Source of the DNA: Candidatus Magasanikbacteria bacterium RIFCSPHIGHO2_01_FULL_33_34
GTDB lineage: Bacteria > Patescibacteriota > Patescibacteriia > Magasanikbacterales > UBA922
DNA length: 64,000 nucleotides
NCBI GenBank assembly: GCA_001782825.1
Contig: MFPS01000006.1
Span: 84,553 to 148,552 of the forward strand
Direction: 5' to 3'
How positions within the stretch are numbered: position 1 is the stretch's first letter; the number at the start of each line of letters is the position of its first letter. The translations under genes were made by a program, and so were the position numbers. Of the stretch, positions 4,101 through 60,359 are shown piece by piece. The notes below the pieces were generated by a model, which was not told the origin of the DNA, made no database searches, and saw only the letters and a list, made by a program, of their open reading frames with translations.

Positions 4101-6357
4101 TAGAAAAATCAGATACTGAAAAATTATAAATTCTTTGAGCAATTGAACGGTATTGATCATCACCAGTTTCTCTTTCATAAAGAAGAAAAGGAGTTACATA
4201 TCCGTATTTTCCATCTTGTTCTCCTGTTTTTGGAGTAAAGTAACCACCTGAACTTATGTGATTTCTATAATATTCAAAATCAGATAAAAATTGTTGATAC
4301 CAACGAGCTTTATCTGTAGATGATACAGAACGTTTATACATATAATAAGCAACTGAAGCTCTATCAAACAACCACGGTTCATAAATTGTTTCTCCATAAT
4401 TCCAATTTCCATAACCAGATGTAAATCTAGAATCAACATTATGTCCTTCAAAATTCCAATTTCTTGCCCAAGTTTCAGCAAATTTAACTAAAGGAGCATC
4501 TGCAGGGTCATTAAGATTGAATGGAGCAAAAGTAGGCACAGAACTACCAGTCAAGATAGGTACTGGAACTGGTGAAGGAGTTGGTGTAATGACTGGGGTT
4601 GGAGTTGGATCAAGTACTGGAACTGGAGTTGCCACAGCAAACAAATAATTTTCAACCGAATAACCATCGGCACCACTATCATAATTTATTTGCCACCAAT
4701 TATATCCACCTTGGGGCACTGGTCCACTAACTACTGTTCCTTGTGATCCAGCTGATTGATTTCCTAATAATGTACCAGTAGTTGCTGGTGTTGCTCTAAC
4801 ATTTAAGTTTACAGTTGTTTGAACTCGTTGACCTACTGTAAATACACCTGAAGTTGGAGCTGGTGTAGGTGTAGGAGTTGGTGTAATGACTGGATTTGGG
4901 GTTGGGGTTGGGGTTGGGGTTGGGGTTGGTGCTGGTTGAAAAACTGGCAAAGAAATACCAGGTAAAATTACTGAAACATCATCTAACATCAAACCTGTCA
5001 AAGGTTGACTACCTTCTTGGAAAATACCCACGCGAACTCTAGATAAATCACGAGTATTATCAAGAGGAAAACTAAGAGTAATACCTTTATTACCTAATGT
5101 ACTAGGTGCCTCAGAACAATTTTGTACAAATCCTCCACCAAGATACTCTATCAAACCACAAAATGAAATTTTAGATGTTGAATTTACAGTTACACGAACA
5201 CTAGCAGAAGCTGTAAAATGAGATGACCTTCTGGTAGTAAAAGTTGAAAAATCTCTACCACTCCAAAGCACACTATCTCCATAACCAGAAGTACCCACTA
5301 ATAAACTTCTATTACCATTAATTGGATTATTAGTAACCACAGAGACAGAAGTTCCAGATTGATTTGGTTCAAAATTTGAAAGACTATTTTCAAAACCAGA
5401 ATCTTCAAGCAAATTTACTCCTGTTGCAGTAGGCGCTGGTGGTAATGGCTCAGTTTTTTGTGCACTACAGCTAGCAGAAGTACCACCATTTATACCAACA
5501 CAAGTCCAATTCCAAGGACCTGATCCAGAAACAGAGCTAGACGCACCAGTAGAACATAAATTGGTAGTTGGTATACTTGATACAGTAGTACCATTAACTG
5601 AACCACAAACACCATTTACTAAAATTGGGGTTGGGGTTGGTTCTGGAGTTGGGGTAGGAGTTGGAGTTGGAGTTGGAGTTGGAGTTGGGGTTGGAGTTGG
5701 GGTTGGGGTTGGGGTAGGAGTTGGGGTTGGAGTTGGGGTTGGGGTTGGAGTTGGCGTAGGTTCTGGAGTTGGCGTAGGTGTTGTAGAAGTACCACCAGAC
5801 AAAACTACTGAAACATCATCAATCATTACTCCTGTCAAACGATCACTACCTTCTTGAAAAATACCAACACGAACTCGTTCTATGTCTTGAGAAATATCAA
5901 GCGGGAAAGTGACTGAAACAGTACCTTTATAACCCATTGAACCAGAAACTTCAGAACATTCTATAATATATTGTCCATTAGTATATTCTACTAAACCACA
6001 AAATCTAATACCTGAAGCAGAATCAACTGTAGCTCGAATTCTAACAGAACCAGTAAACTGAGAAAATCTTTTACTACTAAAATTTAAAAGATTGCTACCA
6101 GACCAAAGTACACTATCACCATATCCAGAAGTATTTATTAATAAACTTCTTGAACCATTGATTGGACTATCACTAGTTAAAGAAGCAGATGTTCCATTTT
6201 GATTGGGTTCAAAATTTGACATACTGGTCTCAAAGCCAGGATCACCAACTAAATTATCTGTAACTATATCAGCCCTAACAATAGTAAAAAATGATGGCGA
6301 ATAAAACACCAAACCAAATACTATCATTAAGGCAAAAAATATTAACGATTTTTTCAT
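1108..6357 (-). CDS. Giant secreted multidomain protein (1749 aa). Signal peptide, two CBM-like beta-sandwich modules, two SH3b-like modules, an alpha-rich domain, an alginate-lyase/heparinase II/III-like module (HxHxDxxSF motif) and a C-terminal beta-rich region, all joined by (TP)n/(AP)n linkers.
   Basis: N-terminus [20 protein letters not shown] is a signal peptide. The module VGDPGFE...IDDVSVVL is repeated (aa about 30-190 and 320-480). The module [50 protein letters not shown] is repeated twice. [12 protein letters not shown] matches the Hepar_II_III HxHxDxxSF signature, and an alpha/alpha-toroid-like region precedes it. Long TPTPTP linkers are present. Confidence 0.8.
4897..4935. repeat. 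(GGGGTT)5 hexanucleotide tandem repeat inside the giant gene (encodes a PTPTPT linker on the minus strand)
   Basis: ggggttggggttggggttggggttggggtt is read directly. Confidence 0.8.
5625..5790. repeat. About 165-bp imperfect hexanucleotide tandem repeat (GGNGTT units) encoding a (TP)n linker of about 50 aa
   Basis: ggggtt/ggagtt/ggcgta units repeated about 27 times. The opposite-strand GVGV ORF (5561..5857) is an artefact of this repeat. Confidence 0.85.
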
Positions 6358-6597
6358 ACAAAATGATTAAATAAAATAAATTTTAATAAATTAAAATAAT
6401 TATTTTAAATCTGCCTTTTGAAAACAAAGATAAAATATATTTATTAAGTATACAATATAGTTTAAAATAAGTAAACTACCATTTACCACCAATAACAAAC
6501 GATACGTATCAAAACTACTTAAATACAAAACCAATATGCCCTTGTACAAGCTACAAATTTATGTTACAATATTGCTACTAAATGAATCATAATCTGA

Positions 6598-8724
<2,127 letters not shown>

Positions 8725-8747
8725 TTATATAATTTTAATAGACAAAT

Positions 8748-9158
8748 ATGCCATCAGAAAATTTAAAAACTAATGATACTACCATGTCAGAACAAGAAAA
8801 AATTATAACACAGCAAGAAAAAGAAAAAACATTAAAACAAAAAGAAGCAGTACAATATAAAGTAATGGAAAAATTGGGTTTTTTACCAAATAATTTTGAT
8901 CCAAAAAACTATGAATCACCAGATGTTGATCAAATAAAAGTTTTACGATGGAGCCAAACTGAAGATGAAAGCAAAGATATAGAAACAAAAACAAAAGAAG
9001 AACCAGTAACAAACGCAAAAATCTTTAGAGAAGCATACAATGATCCTAAAATTAATGAATTTGCCGGCAAAACAATACCAGAAAATGAACTAGATAACAT
9101 AGTTGACAAGATTGTTAAAAAAATGATTTCAAACCCGAAAGCATTAATTTTAAATTAA
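8748..9158 (+). CDS. Hypothetical Lys/Glu-rich protein
   Basis: 136-aa ORF with no recognisable motifs. Confidence 0.35.
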   Translation: MPSENLKTNDTTMSEQEKIITQQEKEKTLKQKEAVQYKVMEKLGFLPNNFDPKNYESPDVDQIKVLRWSQTEDESKDIETKTKEEPVTNAKIFREAYNDPKINEFAGKTIPENELDNIVDKIVKKMISNPKALILN

Positions 9159-9479: not shown

Positions 9480-10025
9480 ATGGCTAAACAAACCTTAAAC
9501 CTCGGCCGTAGATGGTATGTACTTCATACATACAGCGGTTACGAGGAAAATGTAAAAAGAAACCTCGAACAACGTATTGCTTCTTTTGACATGCAAGATA
9601 AAATTTTCAGTGTAATGGTACCAAAAGAGAAAAAAATAAAAATCAAAAATGGTAAACGCCAAGTAATAGAAGAAAAAGTATTTCCTGGATATGTGCTTGT
9701 AGAAATGATAGTAACAGATGATTCTTGGTATGTAGTTCGCAATACTCCAAATGTAACTGGATTTATCGGTTCTGGAACGACTCCAGTATCAATTGACCCA
9801 AAAGAAATGCTCAAATTACAAGGCCGAATGGATGTATCTGAACCATCACACAAAATCGATGCTGAAATTGATGATAATGTAAAAATTACTGACGGACCAT
9901 TCAAAAATTTTGAAGGTAAGGTCAGCGCAGTAGATGAAGCTAGAGGAAAAGTAAAAGTATTGGTATCTATGTTTGGTAGAGAAACTCCGGTTGAATTAGA
10001 CGCTTTACAAGTTAAAAAGTTATAA
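9480..10025 (+). CDS. nusG: Transcription termination/antitermination factor NusG (start at internal Met 9480; the ORF-track start at 9342 overlaps secE)
   Basis: RRWYVLHTYSGYEENV...FPGYVLVEM (NGN domain) and the C-terminal KOW domain GRETPVELD...V. Confidence 0.9.
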   Translation: MAKQTLNLGRRWYVLHTYSGYEENVKRNLEQRIASFDMQDKIFSVMVPKEKKIKIKNGKRQVIEEKVFPGYVLVEMIVTDDSWYVVRNTPNVTGFIGSGTTPVSIDPKEMLKLQGRMDVSEPSHKIDAEIDDNVKITDGPFKNFEGKVSAVDEARGKVKVLVSMFGRETPVELDALQVKKL

Positions 10026-26623: not shown

Positions 26624-26874
26624 TATATGCGGGCAACATTTATTATAGCACACAGAATAAAACTAGCCAAATCCATATCCCTTTTGCTCTTTTTAACTAA
26701 CCCAAGCTGTTATTTTTTATTATGAGTCGCAAAATATTATACTTATCCACAATCAAAAATATTACAAACACAATTAAATATAAATTATTAGAAATTAAGA
26801 AGTCCTAATCAAGGAAATTCTAAAGCGAGGAGGACAGTACAAATAAATGTAGTTTCAAAAATGTCATACAACAA

Positions 26875-26953: not shown

Positions 26954-28021
26954 ATGCTAAATGAAGAAACATACAATTTAGAAAATGAAGAACCACGATT
27001 GATCACGCCAGAAGAAATTGTAGATGAACAAACTATTGAAATAAATCTGCGTCCACAAACTTTACTAGAATTTATTGGACAAGACCATATAAAGGAGCCA
27101 CTCTCAATCTCAATTGAAGCTTCTAAAAAAAGAAATGAATCCATTGAACATGTACTACTTTATGGAAATCCTGGTCTTGGAAAAACTACCCTTGCAAATA
27201 TCATTGCGCGTGAAATGGGTTCAAATATTCGCATAACAGCTGGTCCAGCTCTAGAACGAGTCGGCGACCTAGCTGCTATACTGTCCAACCTTGAAGCCGG
27301 TGATGTACTTTTTATTGACGAAATTCATCGTATGAACAAAACCATTGAAGAAGTAATGTATAGTGCAATGGAAGATTATGCACTAGATATAATAGTTGGC
27401 AAAGGTCCAGCAGCGAGAACTTTGCGAATGCCACTTGAACGATTTACACTGATCGGCGCAACCACAAAATTAAATTTATTATCCAGTCCATTACGAGACC
27501 GTTTTGGCCATGTATATCACCTAAACTTTTATGAAAATGATGATATTAAAAAAATTGTTCACAGAAGTGCATCTATACTAGAAATGGATATCAAAGACAA
27601 TGCATCTGATATCATATCCAGTCGTTCACGTAGAACTCCACGCGTAGCTAATCGTCTACTTCGAAGAGTCCGAGATTATGCTGAAGTCCGACATAATGGT
27701 ATAATATCAGATGAATCTACCATTGAAGCTTTAACAATGTTAAATGTAGACAAACATGGACTAGATGAAGTAGACAGAAAAATTTTAACTTGTATTATTG
27801 AAAAATTTGATGGTGGCCCAGTTGGTCTCAATACACTAGCCGCTGCTATAGCTGAAGATATGGATACTATTGAAACCATTTACGAACCATATCTTTTACA
27901 AATCGGTATGTTAGAAAGAACTCCTAGAGGCAGATTAGCGACTCGCACAGCCTATGATCATATAAATGTAACCAAACGCGAATCTACTAAACCTAAAAAT
28001 TTTAAAGGCTGGAAAATGTAA
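26954..28021 (+). CDS. ruvB: Holliday junction branch-migration helicase RuvB
   Basis: [19 protein letters not shown], Walker [17 protein letters not shown], and the sensor motifs. Confidence 0.95.
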
Positions 28022-33166: not shown

Positions 33167-34966
33167 TTATTCTTTATTCTTCCTATTTTTTTTAATAATT
33201 TCATCCAATTTTTTGGTAGCTGTTTCTGTTTTACATCTAACCGGGCCTTTACCAGAAATATCTGCAACCGAAGGAGAAACAAAAGTTTTAAACCGCGTCC
33301 CACCATCTTTTTTAATCCCCATATTTATAGCATTGATATCAATACCATATTCAAGTCCCATGCTTGCCTGTCTAAAACCAGGTGATTGACCTTCTTGAAG
33401 AACTCTAACATGCCCTCTGCGACTAATAAAAGATTTAACCTCTGCATCATTACCGTCCCCGGTTGATTCCCTCACCTTTTCAGAGCACTTAATTTCTCGC
33501 AAATGACTCAATATAATATTTTTAATAAATTCACCTTTTCCAGAAAAATTTATAGGTTTTTGTGTTTTTGCATTTCTTGGAATAACATACTGATCCAAAA
33601 GCAACCTAAAAGTATAAAGCCCAATCTTAACATCAACGATAACTTCTTTTTTATTACTTTCATTTATAGTATAGGTGACTGTTTCAAAACCCAATTTTAA
33701 AAGCTCTGGATCTGTTATTTCAACCCTGTCACCTCTCGGACTCAATGAATATCTTGTATTATCCTGAATATCTTGTTTCAAAGAAACATTTAACTCACCC
33801 AATTCTTTCAAACCTTCTTCCAAATCCAAATTATCTGGCATTATTTGTGACAGCGTTTCCCAATATTCAGTATCCAAATGCAATTCGTCAATACCACCCT
33901 CAGTTTTTTTAAGAAATTCTAACAATCCACTATTTATTTCATCCTGAGATAATCCATTGGCAATACTAGTTGCTGTAGGTAATATAACTGAAAAAGTATC
34001 TTCATTATTTTCACTTTTTATAAGTTTTGCGCCTTCATTAGCAACAAATTTTCCTAATTCACCACTTTTAGTCAATGCTCTTAATAAACCAGTTTTATCA
34101 CCTCTTAAAATTTTTTCTATAGGGATATCATTTTCCTTATTATAAAGATCATTTAATTTTTCCATTCTTTTCAATATTATTATTCCCTCATCCTTACCAA
34201 CATCTTTCAACCTTCTATCAAACTCATTTTTAAATTCATCACTTTCATAAATATTAGCTTCAACCTCACTATAATTTTTAACAATATCTTCTAGTCCATC
34301 TGATTTTTGGCTATGCAAACCAATCGCCCCTTCTATTTCCAATCTTTTAGCTAAAATATCATTATCTGATGAAAATTTTGATATCACAAATAAAAGCGCT
34401 TGTCTTGATTCTGTTTTTAATATATCTGTCTTGTACGACAAAATTTCTACAAGTTTATCTGATATTTTTTTATTTCCTGAAAAAAATCCACCCACACAAA
34501 GTTCATAAATAAAATCTACCAACTCCTTTTCATTGCCCAATTTATTAATTTTATTAGTCAATAAAGCTTCAGCCAACTCACCATAAATTTGATCTTCAAC
34601 CATAACCGTCATCCATTTTTCCAAAACACCAGCATCTTTTGGCAAATTTACTTTCTTTAATTTCTCAATCAAAGAATTCTTAAAATCTTCTGACCTATAA
34701 CCAGGTATATCCGCTAACAATTCCAAAGAGTTAATAGTATCAATAGCTCTAGTAGGATCAACAACCAATTCCTTACTCAGTCTATCAATCATTGCTTTTT
34801 GCCTATCTCGCCCTTTAGCCTCTCCTTCTTTCCTCGGCTTATCTACAAAATTGTTAAACTCGCTGACCATATTCATTGATGAAGCTAGCTGAGGGGTAGA
34901 TAAAATAACAGAATCTTCTTCTGATTTTATATATTGTTCTGGATTATAGGAACCTTCAGTTCTCAT
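33167..34966 (-). CDS. Hypothetical 599-aa soluble protein with no detectable family
   Basis: No signal peptide or TM. Largely helical, Lys/Glu-rich. C-terminal Gly-rich region (GDGNDAEV...RRGHVRVLQEGQSPGFRQ...GKGPVRC). Bounded by a terminator and a 1-kb non-coding region. Confidence 0.6.
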   Translation of the reverse strand: MRTEGSYNPEQYIKSEEDSVILSTPQLASSMNMVSEFNNFVDKPRKEGEAKGRDRQKAMIDRLSKELVVDPTRAIDTINSLELLADIPGYRSEDFKNSLIEKLKKVNLPKDAGVLEKWMTVMVEDQIYGELAEALLTNKINKLGNEKELVDFIYELCVGGFFSGNKKISDKLVEILSYKTDILKTESRQALLFVISKFSSDNDILAKRLEIEGAIGLHSQKSDGLEDIVKNYSEVEANIYESDEFKNEFDRRLKDVGKDEGIIILKRMEKLNDLYNKENDIPIEKILRGDKTGLLRALTKSGELGKFVANEGAKLIKSENNEDTFSVILPTATSIANGLSQDEINSGLLEFLKKTEGGIDELHLDTEYWETLSQIMPDNLDLEEGLKELGELNVSLKQDIQDNTRYSLSPRGDRVEITDPELLKLGFETVTYTINESNKKEVIVDVKIGLYTFRLLLDQYVIPRNAKTQKPINFSGKGEFIKNIILSHLREIKCSEKVRESTGDGNDAEVKSFISRRGHVRVLQEGQSPGFRQASMGLEYGIDINAINMGIKKDGGTRFKTFVSPSVADISGKGPVRCKTETATKKLDEIIKKNRKNKE

Positions 34967-35257
34967 ATATAATATTATTAAATATTACTTATAATACCAT
35001 ATATAAATTAGCATTTACAATATTTTTACAAACGACATACAAAATAATAAAATAAAAATATTTTTATTATATATTTAATTAAAAAATAAACATTTTGTAT
35101 AAACAATCCTATACAATTTTTTAAAAATATAATTTAAAAAATTAATATTTTTGCCTTAAATAAGCAAAATATTATCAATATTTTACCAAAAATAACCTCT
35201 TACTGAACACCAATTGTAGACAACAATTATGCAAATCCACCCATATTTTTCCATTGT

Positions 35258-35368
35258 TTGTATAGACTATTGTATACAACTGTGGATAACTCTGTGCAAA
35301 ACTCCAAAAAAAGTGGATAAATCCATAAAAAACACCAAAAAAACTATTTGTATAGACTAGTGTATACA
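35258..35368. promoter_or_regulatory. Organised operator-like module: two DnaA boxes bracketed by two copies of a 22-bp palindrome
   Basis: Palindromes ttgtatagactattgtatacaa (35258-79) and ttgtatagactagtgtataca (35348-68). Between them are a perfect DnaA box reverse complement tgtggataa (35281-89) and a one-mismatch box agtggataa (35312-20). The module lies about 50 bp upstream of the promoter at 35419. Confidence 0.45.
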
Positions 35369-35418
35369 TTTTTTATTCATTAAATAAGCCATTTTTTAGC
35401 TTATTTTAGCAAAAAACA

Positions 35419-35447
35419 CCCCTTACTCTTGACAAAAGTCCAAAAAT
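35419..35447 (+). promoter_or_regulatory. Near-consensus sigma70 promoter (TTGACA-17-TATAGT)
   Basis: ttgaca at 35419-24, an exact 17-nt spacer, then tatagt at 35442-47. Confidence 0.6.
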
Positions 35448-35453
35448 ATGTTA

Positions 35454-35918
35454 TAGTATATATGTAGTTCATTACAATGTTCTCTATAACTGAAAGGTTA
35501 TGAGAACATCACTCTCCTTTACTGCAAACATTCCTGTTCTCACCCTTGCGAACAGTCCTATCAATATGAAGAAAGATGCTAAATTCCTTTCTACACAGAT
35601 AGCACGTCGCTCAACAACGCCAAGTAAGCGTCCGCTGAAAGGCACAAAAACAAACATAAAAGTTAAAAACAGAGGCGAGACCAGGACGGTGTGATCTCAA
35701 TTTATAGCGGTTCATGCTTCGGCTGAATCGTCGAGATTCCTACCATTTAGTGGTAGAGGGGTTTTCTACCGTTATAACCTTGTCTATGAGTTTTTTCTCG
35801 AGCCATCTGATAATTTAAATAATTGAATTATGAGACGGCTCGAGTACTCATGCAAATATAACGCATGAGGCAGTAGCCATTTATTAATTTATTCGGTGTC
35901 ACTGCCTCTATTTTTTTT
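35454..35918 (+). ncRNA. Candidate roughly 465-nt structured transcript of unknown class, from the promoter to the terminator. May carry a small basic ORF (about 42-64 aa) in its 5' half. The 3' half is GC-rich and hairpin-dense.
   Basis: Multiple perfect stems are present: UUCG-capped uucaugc-uucg-gcugaa, cuacca/ugguag, gguaga/ucuacc, cucgagcc/ggcucgag and cucaugc/gcaugag. Terminator hairpin gaggcagt...actgcctc plus T8 at 35867-35918. No match seen to RNase P, tmRNA, SRP or 6S hallmarks. Confidence 0.4.
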
Positions 35919-36011
35919 GTAAAATATTTATCATTAATACAAAAAAGACAATAAGTCTTGCCAAACTACAACATTTAATATATAATTATTTCATATTTTA
36001 AAAATAAGTAT

Positions 36012-36404
36012 ATGACCAAAAAGAAATCTGCCTTTACCAAAGAGTTCCTGAATGAAATCAAGGCACTCCTGCTCCAAGAAAAAGAAAATCTCACAGATGA
36101 ACTTGATAGATTTACCAAAAAAAATCCCCACACATCTGATGATTATGATGCTAGTTTTCCAAATTATGGTGATGAAGAAGATGAAAATGCTCGTGAAGTA
36201 GCCCAATATACAGCCAACAAACCCCTAGAAATCACCCTCGAAAAAACCCTAAGGGATACTAACAAAGCCCTAGAAAGCCTTTCCAAAGGGACCTATGGTA
36301 TTTGTAAATATTGTGATCAACCAATTGATGAAAAACGTTTACGAGCTAGACCAACCTCAGGAGCTTGTATTTCTTGTAAAAAAACTCTTACTGACGAGGT
36401 TTAA
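36012..36404 (+). CDS. DksA/TraR-family C4 zinc-finger protein
   Basis: C-terminal GICKYCDQPIDEKRLRARPTSGACISCKK (CxxC-N17-CxxC) with an acidic coiled-coil N-terminus. Confidence 0.6.
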   Translation: MTKKKSAFTKEFLNEIKALLLQEKENLTDELDRFTKKNPHTSDDYDASFPNYGDEEDENAREVAQYTANKPLEITLEKTLRDTNKALESLSKGTYGICKYCDQPIDEKRLRARPTSGACISCKKTLTDEV

Positions 36405-45611: not shown

Positions 45612-45889
45612 GGTTTATCCTCTCCACCCTTACTCCAAGGATTACACCGAACAATTCTCCAAATAGATTTGGTTACACCTTTAAAAAAGCCATATTTTTT
45701 TATACTCTGCTTTCCATATTCACTACAAGACGGATAAAATCTACAAAATCCTCTTGGATAAATATACTTCCCCCAAAAACTATGGTCCGGTGAAAAAAGC
45801 TTTTGATACAGACCAATAAAAATTACAAAAGGAATTCTAGTATAATAAATAAATTGCTTTAATTTCCTATACAACTCCATATCAAACAA
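45608..45889 (-). CDS. yidD: Membrane protein insertion efficiency factor YidD
   Basis: CRFYPSCSEYGKQSIKKYG...RIVRCNPW matches the YidD signature. Located downstream of rnpA. Confidence 0.8.
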   Translation of the reverse strand: MFDMELYRKLKQFIYYTRIPFVIFIGLYQKLFSPDHSFWGKYIYPRGFCRFYPSCSEYGKQSIKKYGFFKGVTKSIWRIVRCNPWSKGGEDKP

Positions 45890-46259
45890 GTAATTTGGCT
45901 TTTTTCAAAATATTCATAATTCCTTTTTCTATCTTTTCATATTCAACTCCAAGTGCAATTGGTTTGGCAATTATTGCGATCATAAAACCTTTTTTAAATT
46001 CTTTATTTTTGAGCGCAATTCTCACCACTTCACGCATTTGTCGTTTCAATCTATTTCTTTTAACGGCACTTTTACTGACTTTAAGTCCAACCACAAAACC
46101 AATTTTTAAATCTTCTACATTATAATTTCTTTTTGGATATTTTTCTATATTAGTTTTCCAAACCTTGGCTGAAAATAATTCATCATTAATAAAATAACCT
46201 TCTTTAAAAAGAATTTCAAAATCTTTCATTTTTGTTAATCTATATTCTTTTGGCAACAT
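45882..46259 (-). CDS. rnpA: Ribonuclease P protein component
   Basis: Basic 125-aa protein with VSKSAVKRNRLKRQMRE (the RNR motif) between rpmH and yidD. Confidence 0.85.
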   Translation of the reverse strand: MLPKEYRLTKMKDFEILFKEGYFINDELFSAKVWKTNIEKYPKRNYNVEDLKIGFVVGLKVSKSAVKRNRLKRQMREVVRIALKNKEFKKGFMIAIIAKPIALGVEYEKIEKGIMNILKKAKLLV

Positions 46260-46387: not shown

Positions 46388-46564
46388 TTATCTTGTCTTC
46401 TTTGATCTTTTGCCAGTCTTTTCATCGCTGACAGTTAATTTTGCTCTGCCTTTTGCGCGACGTCTTTTCAAAAGATTTCTTCCATCTTTAGTTTCCATTT
46501 TGGAACGGAAACCATGAGACTTTGCTCGTTTGCGCTTATTAGGCTGATAGGTTCTTTTTGGCAT
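46388..46564 (-). CDS. rpmH: 50S ribosomal protein L34 (not in the ORF track; found by manual translation)
   Basis: Minus-strand translation [45 protein letters not shown]... matches the L34 consensus MKRTYQPS.RKR...HGFR.RM.T..GR.VL..RR.KGR. Classic position upstream of rnpA and divergent from dnaA. Confidence 0.85.
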
Positions 46565-46738
46565 AATATATATTCAAAATTTGTGTTCGAAGTATACAAC
46601 AAGTAATTATTTTTGTCAACAACTCATACAATTATATTCAAACCCAAGCTCATTATTTAAAATATTTAAAACATATATTTAAATATATTTTTGTCAAAAA
46701 TCCAAAAAATACCTTATTTTAGAGAAAAATATCATTGG

Positions 46739-46767
46739 TTATCCACATTATCCCCAACTTATCCCCA
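46739..46767 (+). promoter_or_regulatory. Cluster of three tandem DnaA boxes upstream of dnaA (TTATCCACA, TTATCCCCA, TTATCCCCA)
   Basis: 9-mers read directly at 46739-47, 46748-56 and 46759-67, in the AT-rich rpmH-dnaA spacer. Confidence 0.6.
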
Positions 46768-46898
46768 TATTACTAACTTTTTGGCTATTTTAAGCCATTT
46801 TTTGTTTTAGTGAACTGTGCTAAAATGAATTTATTCGTTCTATTTGAAGGAAATTTTCCCTTTTTTAGGCTATTTTACATAAATTTTAAGTAAATATT

Positions 46899-48281
46899 AT
46901 GACAAACAATGAAGTTTGGCAAGCTGTACTGGCTGAATTTGAACTAAAAGTCTCAAAAGCTAATTTTACCACTTGGTTTCATAATACTGGGGTTGCAAAT
47001 TTTGATGATGGTCATGCAGTGATCTGTGTTCCTAATGCCTTTACCAAAAGTTGGATGGAAAAAAAATACAATTCTGACATTATCAAATCACTTGAACGTG
47101 TTACAGGCAAACCAGTCAAAAAAATAGAATATCGGGTAGAAAATGTTAAAAGTATTGAAGAATATGAATGTACTTCCAAAACCAATCCAACCATTTCTAC
47201 CATAAAAACACCAATATACTCACCAAAACCAGCCCAAATGATTAGTCAGTTTGGCCTAAACCCAAAACATACTTTTGAGTCTTTTGTAGTAGGCAAAGGA
47301 AATGAGCTAGCCCACGCCGCCGCCCAAGCTGTAGCAGAAAAACCAGGAGAAGCCTACAACCCGCTCTTTATATACGGTGGAGTTGGACTAGGTAAAACTC
47401 ACCTTTTACAGGCTGTAGGCAATACTATGCTCAAAAATAACCCTACTTTAAAGATTTTGTATGTTAGTTCTGAAAAATTCACAAATGAATTTGTTTCGGC
47501 TGTAAAAGAAGGTCGAGCAAAGGAATTTAAAGAAAGATATAGAGGGGTTGATCTACTTTTAATTGACGACATACAATTTATTGGTGGAAAAGAGCAAACC
47601 CAAGAAGAATTTTTCCACACTTTCAACGAATTGCACCAACAGGGCAAACAGGTTGTCCTTACCAGTGATAGACCACCAAAAGCTATTCCTTCTCTAGAAG
47701 ACAGACTACGTAGTCGTTTTGAATGGGGAATGATTGTAGACATTTCTCCACCTGACTTTGAAACTAGAGTGGCGATTTTACAAACCAAGTGCCAAGAAAA
47801 GAATTTTGTTCTAGACACCCCCTTGATCCAAATTATTGCCGAAGCAATTCAAAGCAATATTCGTGAATTAGAGGGAGCGCTAAACAAAATGATTGCTTAT
47901 CACCAACTTAAAAATCTATCTCCTGATAAAGACTCAGTTAAATCAGTTTTAGCAACCTTTGATACCAAGAGCATAAAAAAGACAAAAACCCCAAGAGAGA
48001 TTATTTCAGAAATTTCTGAATTTTATGGTGTTATGATTGATGATATTATGGGAAAAAGCCGAGAAAAGCGCTTATCTTTTCCAAGACAAATAATAATGTA
48101 TATTCTTAGACATGAACTTAAAATGTCCTACCCAGCAATCGGAGCCGAACTTGGTGGTAGAGACCACACTACCGCTATGCACGCTCACACAAAAATAAGC
48201 ACTGAACTTGAAAAAGATTTAAAGCTAAAACAAGAATATGAATCTATTAAACATAAGCTTTATGAAGAAAGAAGTGTATAA
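46899..48281 (+). CDS. dnaA: Chromosomal replication initiator DnaA
   Basis: N-terminal domain, AAA+ GGVGLGKTHLLQAVGN, DDIQF, and C-terminal DNA-binding helix-turn-helix motifs. Confidence 0.95.
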   Translation: MTNNEVWQAVLAEFELKVSKANFTTWFHNTGVANFDDGHAVICVPNAFTKSWMEKKYNSDIIKSLERVTGKPVKKIEYRVENVKSIEEYECTSKTNPTISTIKTPIYSPKPAQMISQFGLNPKHTFESFVVGKGNELAHAAAQAVAEKPGEAYNPLFIYGGVGLGKTHLLQAVGNTMLKNNPTLKILYVSSEKFTNEFVSAVKEGRAKEFKERYRGVDLLLIDDIQFIGGKEQTQEEFFHTFNELHQQGKQVVLTSDRPPKAIPSLEDRLRSRFEWGMIVDISPPDFETRVAILQTKCQEKNFVLDTPLIQIIAEAIQSNIRELEGALNKMIAYHQLKNLSPDKDSVKSVLATFDTKSIKKTKTPREIISEISEFYGVMIDDIMGKSREKRLSFPRQIIMYILRHELKMSYPAIGAELGGRDHTTAMHAHTKISTELEKDLKLKQEYESIKHKLYEERSV

Positions 48282-48295
48282 TTATTTATATATCT

Positions 48296-48481
48296 TGTTA
48301 ATAACTTATGTATAAATAGTTAACAACTATAAAAAATAATGTTAATAACTACAATATTATCCACAGCAAAATTATCATATTAAAAATATTAACAGTTAGA
48401 CAACATTTCATACACCACACAAAAGTGTATAAAAAAAATTATTTTTTAACTAAACAAAGCCCTAAATAATTCTTATCAACA
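48296..48481 (+). promoter_or_regulatory. DnaA boxes and AT-rich repeats in the dnaA-dnaN spacer (candidate oriC / DUE-proximal part)
   Basis: Perfect TTATCCACA at 48357-65. TTATCAACA at 48473-81. Repeated tgttaataact 11-mers at about 48296 and 48340, plus a very AT-rich tract before dnaN. Confidence 0.5.
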
Positions 48482-48566
48482 CCGTCCACAGCTCTACTAT
48501 AACAATAGATTAAATATATAAAATAAACCTTTTAATTTAAATTATGGATGTGTATATATTGATTAT

Positions 48567-49688
48567 ATGAAATTTACTTGTACAAAAGAAAATATAAATA
48601 AAGTATTAAATCTTACTTGTCCATTAGCTAGTAGGCAAGGTCATTTACCAATACTTATGAATATAATGATAAATGCGGTTGATACTGGAGTAGAAATAAT
48701 AGCAACAAATTTAGAAATTGCTGTTAAAACAAATTTACGAGCAAAGGTAGATGAGAAAGGAACCTTTACGGTACCGGCCAAAACATTGCTTGATTATATT
48801 AATCTTTTGCCCGATTCACAAATAGATTTTTTGTTGGAAAACAATGAATTGGTTGTAAAATGTGTTGGGTCTAGCACAAAAATAAAAGGATCTCCATCAG
48901 AAGAATTTCCGGTTGTACCAGAAATTGATGAAAAAAATGTATATACCATATCAGTAAATAAATTTAAAGATGGACTATCAAAAACAATAATTGCTGTGGC
49001 AAAGAATGAAATTAGACCAGAGTTATCTGGAATATATATGAACTTTTTTGGTTCACGATATAAAGGCCTTGTATTGGCCTCCACAGACTCATACAGGCTG
49101 GCAGAGGCAAAAGTTGATATAGAGCAAGGTGAAACTGAGATACAAGCAATTGTGCCAGCAAGAACAGTTTATGAAATTATTAGATTATTAGGCTTGTCAA
49201 AAGAAATGGAATCAGAAACAAATGTAAGAGTTTGGGTTAGTGAAAATCAAATTGCTATTCGATACAATGGTTTTGAAATGACATCTAGGCTTGTTGAAGG
49301 TAATTATCCTGATTATACTCAAATTATTCCAGAAAATTTTAAAACAATAGCTATATTTCCAACAGATGTAATGATCAAAAAAATCAAAGCAGCTAGTTTG
49401 TTTACATCTGTGGGGGTAAATGCAGTTTCATTTGATTTAAGTGTAGAAAGTAAGACTATGGCAGTATCATCAACTAATGCGCAAACAGGTGAGCATAATT
49501 CAGAAGTTGATGCGGATATAACTGGGGAAGAAAATTCAATATTGTTAAATCATCGGTATGTGCTAGACGGTCTGCAACAAATTGGTGAAAATGTTGAATT
49601 TGGGGTAAACAGTTCTGATTCACCATGTGTTTTCAAAGAAAAAGGAAAGAGTGATTATTTGTATATTGTCATGCCAATAAGACAATAA
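48567..49688 (+). CDS. dnaN: DNA polymerase III beta sliding clamp
   Basis: MKFTCTKENINKVLNLT start, three-domain length (373 aa), and position after dnaA. Confidence 0.9.
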   Translation: MKFTCTKENINKVLNLTCPLASRQGHLPILMNIMINAVDTGVEIIATNLEIAVKTNLRAKVDEKGTFTVPAKTLLDYINLLPDSQIDFLLENNELVVKCVGSSTKIKGSPSEEFPVVPEIDEKNVYTISVNKFKDGLSKTIIAVAKNEIRPELSGIYMNFFGSRYKGLVLASTDSYRLAEAKVDIEQGETEIQAIVPARTVYEIIRLLGLSKEMESETNVRVWVSENQIAIRYNGFEMTSRLVEGNYPDYTQIIPENFKTIAIFPTDVMIKKIKAASLFTSVGVNAVSFDLSVESKTMAVSSTNAQTGEHNSEVDADITGEENSILLNHRYVLDGLQQIGENVEFGVNSSDSPCVFKEKGKSDYLYIVMPIRQ

Positions 49689-60182: not shown

Positions 60183-60254
60183 CCTTTCGTAGTTCAATGG
60201 ATAGAACAAGACACTCCTAACGTCTAGATCCAAGTTCGATTCTTGGCGAGAGGA
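60183..60254 (+). tRNA. tRNA-Arg (anticodon CCU)
   Basis: Manual fold: acceptor CCTTTCG/CGAGAGG, D-arm GTTC-AATGGATA-GAAC, anticodon arm AGACA-CTCCTAA-CGTCT (U33, CCU, A37), T-arm CCAAG-TTCGATT-CTTGG, discriminator A. Confidence 0.8.
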
Positions 60255-60300
60255 CTAATCGTAGTAGTTTCAGCCATAGGCTGATCAGCCTTTGGCTGAC

Positions 60301-60359
60301 AATGGATAGAACAAGACACTCCTAACGTCTAGATCCAAGTTCGATTCTTGGTGAGAGCA
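60301..60359 (+). pseudogene. Truncated tandem copy (D-loop to 3' end, 57/59 identical) of tRNA-Arg(CCU), 46 bp downstream of the intact gene. It lacks the 5' acceptor and D-stem strand.
   Basis: aatggatagaacaagacactcctaacgtctagatccaagttcgattcttgg is repeated exactly. The spacer contains the perfect palindrome GGCTGATCAGCC (60279-60290). Confidence 0.6.

Follow-up and report, generated by a model that had tools for sequence, protein, structure and literature searches.

A conserved structured RNA gene behind a DnaA-box array and paired palindromes in Magasanikbacteria and related Patescibacteria

DnaA functions as a transcription factor through pairs of boxes upstream of promoters, as in the autoregulation of dnaA and the control of nrdAB in Escherichia coli and of sda, ywlC and yydA in Bacillus subtilis, and flanking sites for accessory proteins characterise the datA and DARS loci. 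6S RNA and the ~300-nt mycobacterial Ms1 RNA are abundant RNAs that bind RNA polymerase, and in 6S RNA, as in RNase P, signal recognition particle (SRP) RNA and transfer-messenger RNA (tmRNA), the 5′ and 3′ ends pair with each other. Closely spaced DnaA-box pairs have been described at regulated promoters (PMC11317965), the gidA promoter of Pseudomonas aeruginosa is DnaA-regulated (PMC13438810) and B. subtilis has DnaA-box clusters outside its origin (Ishikawa et al. 2007, PMC2533591). In Caulobacter crescentus, the origin-encoded non-coding RNA (ncRNA) CcnA is driven by the cell-cycle master regulator CtrA (PMC8959179). Here we describe a locus in a 64-kb stretch of AT-rich DNA (the window; GC content ~33%) from the genome of a member of the Magasanikbacteria (Patescibacteria, or candidate phyla radiation, CPR) from the Rifle aquifer. 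The locus is a conserved gene for a structured RNA of ~455 nt (35464–35918, plus strand) that matches no catalogued family, and its promoter follows an array of DnaA boxes bracketed by palindromes. DnaA-regulated promoters, non-origin box clusters and orphan structured RNAs are each known; their present combination turned up in neither Rfam nor the searchable literature. On balance, we favour the reading that the RNA belongs to a new structured family, stands alone and acts in trans, and that its synthesis is set by DnaA and a small helix-turn-helix (HTH) regulator.

The locus resembles DnaA-regulated promoters in that its boxes lie close together at a fixed position upstream of a sigma-70-type promoter, which they abut in some loci, and a TGGCTA..AGCCA element is common to it and to the DNA that precedes dnaA in this genome. 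It differs from them in that its product is a large structured ncRNA, its array is bracketed by phased, lineage-specific putative operators and the system is known from sequence alone. With datA, DARS1/2 and the B. subtilis clusters it has in common an origin-proximal, intergenic cluster of several boxes, sites for accessory proteins and conservation across species; unlike at datA and DARS, the cluster is tied to one promoter and one gene, and no IHF or Fis sites were identified. As with CcnA, an ncRNA promoter near the origin is wired, here by prediction, to a master regulator of replication or the cell cycle, but CcnA is a short base-pairing RNA that has no relation in sequence or structure to the present RNA, which measures 310–460 nt among its homologues and folds into several covarying helices. 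With 6S and Ms1 the RNA shares an abundant-RNA-type promoter, its size class, conservation as a single gene and a DksA-like neighbour, whereas it departs from 6S in matching no model, in having ends without a closing stem and in forming a three-way junction instead of a rod with a central bubble. Finally, its length, several covarying helices and restricted phylogenetic range recall the OLE, ROOL, GOLLD and raiA RNAs, and an A-rich, (ARN)n-like single-stranded tract recalls CrcZ; from all of these it is set apart by the lack of an Rfam match and by its architecture, host clade and genomic context.

The RNA gene, its fold and its family

Transcription is predicted to start at 35464 ± 2 from a sigma-70-type promoter, TTGACA-17-TATAGT with a TG extension (35429–35457, plus strand), which matches the consensus at 11 of 12 positions. 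This promoter block is the best-conserved stretch of the alignment, and no homologue with upstream sequence lacks it. At the other end, the transcript is closed by an intrinsic terminator, P7 (35868–35918, plus strand), in which a hairpin (35868–35908) with an outer stem GAGGCAGT/ACTGCCTC, a short inner stem and an A/U-rich loop is followed by T8. A simple terminator scan overlooked P7, the loop of which exceeds 8 nt. The same two-tier hairpin and U-tract terminates the homologous RNAs, most of which carry 7–9 U. A preliminary description of this DNA had proposed a near-consensus promoter, a hairpin plus T8 terminator and a UUCG tetraloop, all of which we recovered (the loop at ~35719–35722); the transcript itself is ~455 nt long and not ~465 nt as proposed there. 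Every sequence feature listed in that description was recovered either at its given coordinates or no more than one or two bases away.

The predicted RNA folds at −138.7 kcal/mol, with z = −6.8 relative to shuffled sequences. Its plan consists of two 5′ hairpins, P1 (35463–35476) and P2 (35477–35509), a three-way junction closed by the long-range helix P3 (5′ strand 35514–35525, 3′ strand 35750–35761) with P4 (35532–35685) and P5 (35688–35744, including the UUCG loop) as arms, a P6 hairpin domain (35770–35864) and the terminator P7. Independent minimum free energy (MFE) folds of 21–24 homologues recovered the same architecture. The P3 consensus pairs 5′ ..ACUGC(UU) with (AA)GCGGU.. 3′ and has in addition a variable outer part, while the P5 consensus, GGUAnCCUC / GAGGnnnUACC, encloses an inner hairpin. 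The long P4 arm carries lineage-specific insertions and an A-rich tip (35643–35672 in the window), which is found in all members as (A4-5 N)n and reads AAAAAUAAAAAUAAAA or AAAACAAAAACAAAA. In sequence, this tract resembles the (ARN)n motifs to which Hfq-type proteins bind, as in the sponge RNA CrcZ.

Homologues were collected in two ways. A scan of reference genomes based on ComM, the nearest relatives of which come from Magasanikbacteria and other Patescibacteria metagenome-assembled genomes (MAGs) with identities of up to 70%, gave four loci with the same module upstream of dksA-lspA-comM (L003, L010, L016 and L027; L numbers designate individual loci or contigs). A metagenome scan with the palindrome pattern gave at least 120 contigs, and profile searches found the RNA in 18, later in at least 24, of the palindrome contigs listed; in L091, L168, L178, L102 and L163 it had been spotted by eye and was later confirmed. 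The window RNA, present as a single copy, matched the family profile with E = 4e-29 in nhmmer. Approximately 27 loci from related genomes and metagenomes share the order distal palindrome, boxes, proximal palindrome, TGGCTAA-like element, promoter and RNA. Contigs that encode an identical DksA-like protein, namely GCA_001784315.1 (contig MFQM01000050.1) and several groundwater metagenome assemblies, are base-for-base identical across the RNA locus, and no variation was gained from them.

The homologous RNAs, 310–460 nt in length, end at an intrinsic terminator and are followed by a separately promoted dksA-like gene, lspA and comM. This order holds in all loci long enough to judge, while the upstream neighbours vary. 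In the window, the DksA/YteA-like C4 zinc-finger gene (36012–36404, plus strand), which the Pfam zf-dskA_traR and NCBIfam DksA/YteA models match below their cut-offs, likewise precedes lspA and comM, and it has a promoter of its own, TTGCCA-17-TATAAT (35958–35986, plus strand). Nearly all loci have such a promoter, matching at 10–11 of 12 positions, downstream of the RNA terminator and ahead of dksA. Because a strong terminator is thus followed by a separate dksA promoter, the RNA appears to be a transcription unit in its own right. A few contigs carry an inserted gene between the RNA terminator and dksA (L088, at ~7200–8800, and L159; the L088 insert is rubrerythrin-like by eye), so the RNA-dksA adjacency is strong and not absolute. 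In one subfamily, 3–4 direct repeats of TACGGAT(T/A) stand between the RNA terminator and the dksA promoter (L027 3756–3810, L134 2216–2270 and the equivalents in L182 and L128); they are absent from the window and may be the site of another regulator of dksA. The module is usually near dnaA: in L128 it directly follows dnaA and rnpA, and in L027 and L003 the distance to dnaN-dnaA or rnpA-dnaA is 3–6 kb. A covariance model (R1) of the P5 region, built from a one-subfamily seed, recognised that subfamily and L163 and was not used for counts; the unity of the family is therefore based on nhmmer and the shared architecture. A loose regular expression for the P5 core matched 57 loci and was too unspecific for the survey.

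The fold is supported by compensatory changes that keep helices P3, P4 and P5 intact, the general mark of a structured ncRNA. Full-length MAFFT alignment with RNAalifold on 21 RNAs recovered P5 only, and the helices were analysed separately because the 5′ half aligns poorly. In a sequence-only MAFFT alignment, 95.9% of P5 cells can pair, compared to 36–52% when the partner strand is slid, and 24 cells show double changes compared to 7.1 in shuffles, with none of 500 shuffles reaching the observed values. Both sides change in six of the seven P5 pairs and in nine of the ten P4 pairs (P4 likewise 0/500 shuffles). Trimmed "mini-RNA" alignments yielded no common column register for P3, and since its variable bulges blocked such a register, P3 was tested by comparing cognate with non-cognate duplexes. 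The helix appears in the MFE fold of all 21 sequences, and 4–5 pair types occur at several of its positions. Duplexes of cognate strands are more stable than those of non-cognate strands (−8.4 versus −5.2 kcal/mol), the cognate partner ranks in the top two of ~22 for 15 of 23 sequences, and a U-G pair that hardly varies is compatible with the plus strand alone. An alternative pairing of ACUUCUU with AAGCGGU suggested by RNAalifold was rejected, as only the nested P3/P4 model accounts for the covariation in L016 and subfamily 1.

Searches of Rfam 15 (4227 families) gave no match at gathering scores in the window or in four homologous loci. At E up to 10 the window region returned only chance matches of microRNA and snRNA type, and a search with 10 homologous RNAs gave no match at E up to 1; the classes left unmatched include RNase P A and B, OLE, ROOL, GOLLD, raiA, HEARO, riboswitches, T-box and leaders. 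Our literature search found no described RNA motif of Patescibacteria, Parcubacteria or Magasanikbacteria, and no DnaA-regulated small RNA, of such a type. The earlier suggestion of a novel regulatory RNA is thus borne out: the gene is conserved, is delimited by a promoter and a terminator of its own, has three covarying helices and lacks an Rfam counterpart.

DnaA boxes, palindromes and a candidate binder

The DnaA-box array (35281–35320, minus strand) contains TTATCCACA-like boxes throughout: a perfect box reading TTATCCACA (35281–35289), a degenerate box TGTGCAAAA (35293–35301) and a one-mismatch box reading TTATCCACA (35312–35320), all on the minus strand and all inside 40 bp, a cluster of the kind seen in an oriC. 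The window boxes are part of a 31-nt direct repeat. Over the whole window the box count is not enriched (30 versus 23.6 expected); the count from this single window being insignificant, the weight is carried by the clustering and by the comparison with other genomes. With up to one mismatch allowed, homologous regions hold on average 2.8 boxes in 359 nt, compared to 0.22 in the CPR DNA around them, which amounts to a 13-fold enrichment. Across the ~27 loci, 2–4 boxes in the same orientation are centred +16/+28/+48 from the centre of the distal palindrome, read TGTGGATAA on the RNA-sense strand and have their centres 90–250 nt upstream of the predicted RNA start; several loci have an additional inverted box abutting the −35 hexamer. 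The boxes therefore keep a conserved position relative to the promoter, as at DnaA-regulated promoters. The preliminary description had placed the perfect and the one-mismatch box between two palindromes, as we find them, and had raised DnaA regulation as a possibility, for which the retention of box position, orientation and spacing across these loci speaks.

A set of dksA-linked loci lacks the palindromes (L012, a Parcubacteria MAG, and L017, L031, L034 and L070). In these, boxes stand 70–120 nt upstream of a strong, TG-extended promoter, followed by a predicted transcript of ~350–450 nt with a terminator and then by dksA. L031 is tied to the RNA family by nhmmer (E = 9e-4), and L017 contains the same long-range helix sequences, CUUCUACUGCUU / AAGCAGUAGAAG; the remaining loci, L034 among them, are related to the family by their architecture. 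Because the boxes persist in these distant, palindrome-less loci, the data suggest that the association of DnaA boxes with the RNA predates the palindromes. Elsewhere in the window, a perfect DnaA box lies in the intergenic DNA (26743–26751) upstream of ruvB (26954–28021), the promoter of which may be DnaA-controlled.

The distal palindrome TTGTATAGACTATTGTATACAA (35258–35279), an exact TTGTATA-N8-TATACAA, abuts the box array, and the proximal palindrome TTGTATAGACTAGTGTATACAT (35348–35369), which has a single mismatch with T as its last base, is centred at about −106 from the predicted start. To these two copies, already noted in the preliminary description, we add a third and most distal one, TTGTATAAACAATCCTATACAA (35095–35116), an exact match that had been overlooked. 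It sits in the very AT-rich region upstream of the neighbouring 599-aa protein gene and could regulate that gene. With up to two mismatches allowed, the palindrome has five matches in the 64-kb window versus 1.2 expected, and all three good copies are here. In the ~27 loci, the distal palindrome centre lies 16 nt from the first box centre and the proximal palindrome is centred near −52, or at −98 to −125, from the predicted start. The distances between the two palindromes are 70, 79–81, 90–94, 102, 113–116, 123–127, 134–136, 145 and 158 bp (90 bp in the window) and follow a period of ~10.5–11 bp (R = 0.74, p < 2e-4 against uniform spacing), a p-value that is optimistic because the loci are related, though many distinct spacings contribute to it. 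Such same-face phasing would be expected of proteins that occupy the two palindromes and touch across the intervening boxes.

The palindrome contigs also point to a candidate for such a protein. In 26 of the 120 listed, the palindrome lies 2–213 bp upstream of one conserved HTH_17-like gene, usually in 2–3 copies ~80–125 bp apart and without DnaA boxes. This gene is divergent from an extracytoplasmic function (ECF)-type sigma factor gene in 22 of the palindrome contigs listed, and the sigma gene is followed by genes for large membrane or anti-sigma-like proteins. Contigs of this type include L090, L107, L110, L117, L161, L165, L166 (for example at 6139–6700), L176, L177, L184, L186, L195 and others. 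The encoded protein of ~100–130 aa has a weak HTH_17/excisionase-family signature and belongs to a family of at least 1319 clusters with 75–90% identity in Patescibacteria. A sequence search of the PDB returned no relative, and the family has no characterised or solved member. Since autoregulated repressors typically adjoin their own operators in this way, the HTH protein is the best candidate for the palindrome-binder, and the palindrome is probably, judging from its genomic company, the operator of this very conserved, small excisionase-like regulator. LexA and NrdR boxes were considered for the palindrome and rejected; the associated gene is of HTH_17 type and the half-site spacing is unlike that of the NrdR and LexA consensus sequences.

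Between the proximal palindrome and the −35 hexamer lies a further element, AAATAAGCCA / TAGCTTATTTTAGCAA (35381–35412), a degenerate TGGCTAA-N2-TTAGCCA palindrome that has three mismatches in the window and clearer copies at the same place in relatives. Copies of this type also occur upstream of dnaA in the window (46782–46797) and adjoining parS in other contigs. Upstream of the window dnaA, three tandem DnaA boxes (46739–46767) are directly followed by TGGCTATTTTAAGCCA at 46782–46797; the RNA promoter and the dnaA region thus share cis-elements. In the parS cassettes, parS itself (TGTTTCACGTGAAACA-like) occurs once or twice and is joined by TGGCTAAAATTAGCCA, the palindrome and boxes of DnaA type (TTATACCCA, TTATCCACA); these cassettes end at a terminator-like hairpin and adjoin convergent tRNA genes near rmuC/holA. 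They were located in L129 (~7400–7620), L137 (~9560–9760), L151 (8330–8530), L156 (2100–2290) and L163 (~9650–9860), the last of which carries a parS cassette and the RNA module on one 12-kb contig. The cassette resembles an origin-proximal chromosome-organising site; parS is absent from the window.

Alternative readings and genomic setting

The box array and the protein sites beside it could instead act on the initiator itself from near the origin, with the RNA gene as an unrelated neighbour or a mere source of transcription through or close to the site. We consider it unlikely that the locus is above all such a site for DnaA titration or recycling, like datA, DARS or the B. subtilis box clusters. 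Such a role would suit a tight cluster of boxes in the same orientation 11 kb from oriC, and 0.5–5 kb or less from dnaA in L128, L027 and L003, as well as the flanking sites for accessory proteins that are a hallmark of datA and DARS; moreover, because the copies of the palindrome/box/TGGCTAA..TTAGCCA cassette beside parS lie away from obvious gene starts, the cassette can have a chromosome-level role. However, relative to the RNA promoter the position of the array is defined and helically phased in all loci, the array accompanies the RNA gene even though the upstream neighbours vary, and lineages that have no palindrome still carry boxes upstream of the equivalent promoter. Titration and promoter control are compatible and do not exclude each other. 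A second or accessory replication origin, which the preliminary description had entertained, is very improbable. The box cluster is indeed accompanied by a very AT-rich 280-bp stretch just upstream, and parS-linked copies of the cassette exist in other genomes, but the stretch (34967–35250) is found in this genome only, where a conserved unwinding element would recur; it is missing from L010 and L016, where the distal palindrome immediately adjoins the end of a gene or a terminator. There is also no trinucleotide-periodic, DnaA-trio-like run beside the boxes by eye. When we fitted per-gene GC skew with replication and coding-strand terms, the switch fell at 48.0–49.0 kb, at dnaA-dnaN (residual sum of squares, RSS, 524); a switch at 35.0–35.5 kb fitted far worse (RSS 1352), and the skew of plus-strand genes, like that of minus-strand genes, does not change across 35.3 kb, indicating the same replication direction on either side. 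The origin is thereby located at 48–49 kb and not at the RNA locus. Furthermore, a canonical rpmH-(boxes)-dnaA-(boxes)-dnaN origin region is already present in the window (46440–46800 and 48282–48566): rpmH (~46440–46565, minus strand) is followed by an AT-rich stretch, boxes and dnaA, and the AT-rich dnaA-dnaN spacer (48282–48566) carries DnaA boxes at 48357 and 48473.

Other readings concern the transcript. It is rather improbable that the RNA is a cis-acting leader or attenuator in which conditional read-through of the terminator controls dksA-lspA-comM. The RNA is adjacent to and co-oriented with dksA in all loci, the distance from terminator to dksA is short (53–190 nt), U-tracts are weak in L150, L198 and L153, and the MFE fold of L097 swaps the terminator stem for an alternative helix that uses the terminator loop. 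Yet in almost every locus dksA has a near-consensus promoter downstream of the terminator, an arrangement that would bypass attenuation and is at odds with a riboswitch or attenuator. Most terminators have 7–9 U, in L088 another gene separates the RNA from dksA, no cis-regulatory model of Rfam matches, and 310–460 nt with a closed three-way-junction core and an intervening domain is unlike riboswitch and T-box leaders. A similarly slim chance is given to a divergent housekeeping RNA, either a functional analogue of 6S/Ms1 or an RNase P, SRP RNA or tmRNA beyond recognition. The strong, stable-RNA-like promoter, the 5′-terminal hairpin, the conserved, syntenic single-copy gene, the linkage to a DksA-like RNA-polymerase-binding factor and, in L128, the adjoining rnpA would all suit such an RNA, and a stem-bubble-stem drawing of P3, the junction and P4 is possible. 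Against it, the 6S (RF00013), SRP, tmRNA and all types of RNase P models did not match at E up to 10, and ARAGORN found only two tRNAs and no tmRNA in the window. The 5′ and 3′ ends of the RNA do not pair with each other, as those of all four RNAs do and as a tRNA-like domain of tmRNA requires, and the sequence has no visible P4-type RNase P core and no tRNA-like 3′ end. Nor does the RNA form the 6S rod of closing stem, central bubble and terminal stem-loop. Models, ARAGORN and architecture thus agree with the earlier observation that hallmarks of RNase P, tmRNA, SRP and 6S are missing. Least probable of all is a small protein gene. A basic 64-aa open reading frame (ORF) at 35500–35694 does exist, as had been pointed out, and automated annotation calls it a hypothetical protein, but it has no Pfam match and no homologous ORF in any relative, and one homologue (L198) lacks any ORF of ≥20 aa. 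The ORF is thus not conserved in position, frame or sequence: it lies mostly inside a lineage-specific P4 insertion, ORFs are common only to near-identical nucleotide sequences, with shifting starts and frames, and substitutions follow the paired-helix pattern.

Public annotation had placed hypothetical 64-aa ORFs on both the RNA and the operator region, and our analysis corrects it. The ORF at 35175–35369 (minus strand; NCBI record) spans palindromes and DnaA boxes, that at 35500–35694 (plus strand; other pipelines) overlies the RNA, and both appear spurious. The locus fills a 1045-bp gap, previously described as an ORF-poor, AT-rich region of ~1 kb, between the DksA/YteA-like gene and a divergent upstream neighbour that encodes a 599-aa protein (33167–34966, minus strand) without a Pfam or NCBIfam match. 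At the stated distance of 11 kb from the RNA locus lie rnpA (45882–46259, minus strand), dnaA (46899–48281) and dnaN (48567–49688), the distance referring to dnaA. Farther on, the 3′ two-thirds of tRNA-Arg(CCT) (60183–60255) are repeated ~40 nt downstream (~60296–60355), next to a small cluster of unannotated ORFs; this resembles the duplication of an attachment site by an integrating element.

Proposed mechanism and significance

In the reading we favour, RNA synthesis would begin near 35464 at the sigma-70 promoter and stop at the intrinsic terminator ending at 35918, with promoter output set by the conserved upstream nucleoprotein region of boxes and palindromes, as its conservation suggests. 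DnaA and the HTH protein would bind jointly as a looped or wrapped complex, an arrangement suggested by the same helix face being kept across species while the palindrome spacing changes in ~11-bp steps. DnaA occupancy of the intervening boxes, and hence initiation status, may then modulate the promoter; a promoter so close to consensus makes activation less likely than repression or modulation. The RNA would act in trans, most probably as a protein-binding regulatory RNA. Because it is strictly linked to a separately promoted DksA-like gene, the transcription machinery, that is the DksA-like factor or RNA polymerase, is the leading candidate for its partner, a guess from gene order.

Several observations weigh against this scheme. 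The HTH gene was not found in the 64-kb window, and the R1 covariance model failed on the window's own copy of the RNA. The RNA homology of L012, L017 and L070 is architectural, without statistical support, and the phylogenetic kinship of the loci means that the phasing and enrichment statistics overstate their independence. Binding by DnaA and by the HTH protein is deduced from motifs and genomic association, the start, end and promoter activity of the transcript are predictions, and the tie to DksA or RNA polymerase comes from gene order, which may be historical in small, syntenic genomes.

A bolder version, which we regard as doubtful, would make the RNA the effector of a hitherto unknown replication-coupled circuit in which a loop formed by DnaA and a clade-specific HTH master regulator gates the synthesis of this large structured RNA, which would act on a core machine, either RNA polymerase with the adjacent DksA-like factor or the initiation apparatus. 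If true, this would be a new class of housekeeping ribonucleoprotein RNA, of 6S-like rank and structurally unrelated to it, in a phylum with almost no characterised regulation.

Much of bacterial diversity belongs to the Patescibacteria, which have genomes of ~1 Mb; almost none of them is in culture, and next to nothing is known of their regulatory circuits or ncRNAs. Our analysis adds a sizeable new family of structured RNAs, found in Magasanikbacteria and related Patescibacteria, the fold of which is supported by covariation, and large conserved bacterial RNAs have repeatedly proved to be ribozymes or ribonucleoprotein cores. It also offers a candidate operator and regulon, comprising the HTH gene with its ECF sigma gene, the RNA and the parS-linked sites, for a small DNA-binding protein that ranks among the most conserved in the clade. 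The strong predicted promoter behind a DnaA-box array suggests that, in these bacteria with tiny genomes, an abundant RNA may be tied to the state of replication, and the locus thus presents a concrete, testable case of DnaA putatively wired to an ncRNA gene.

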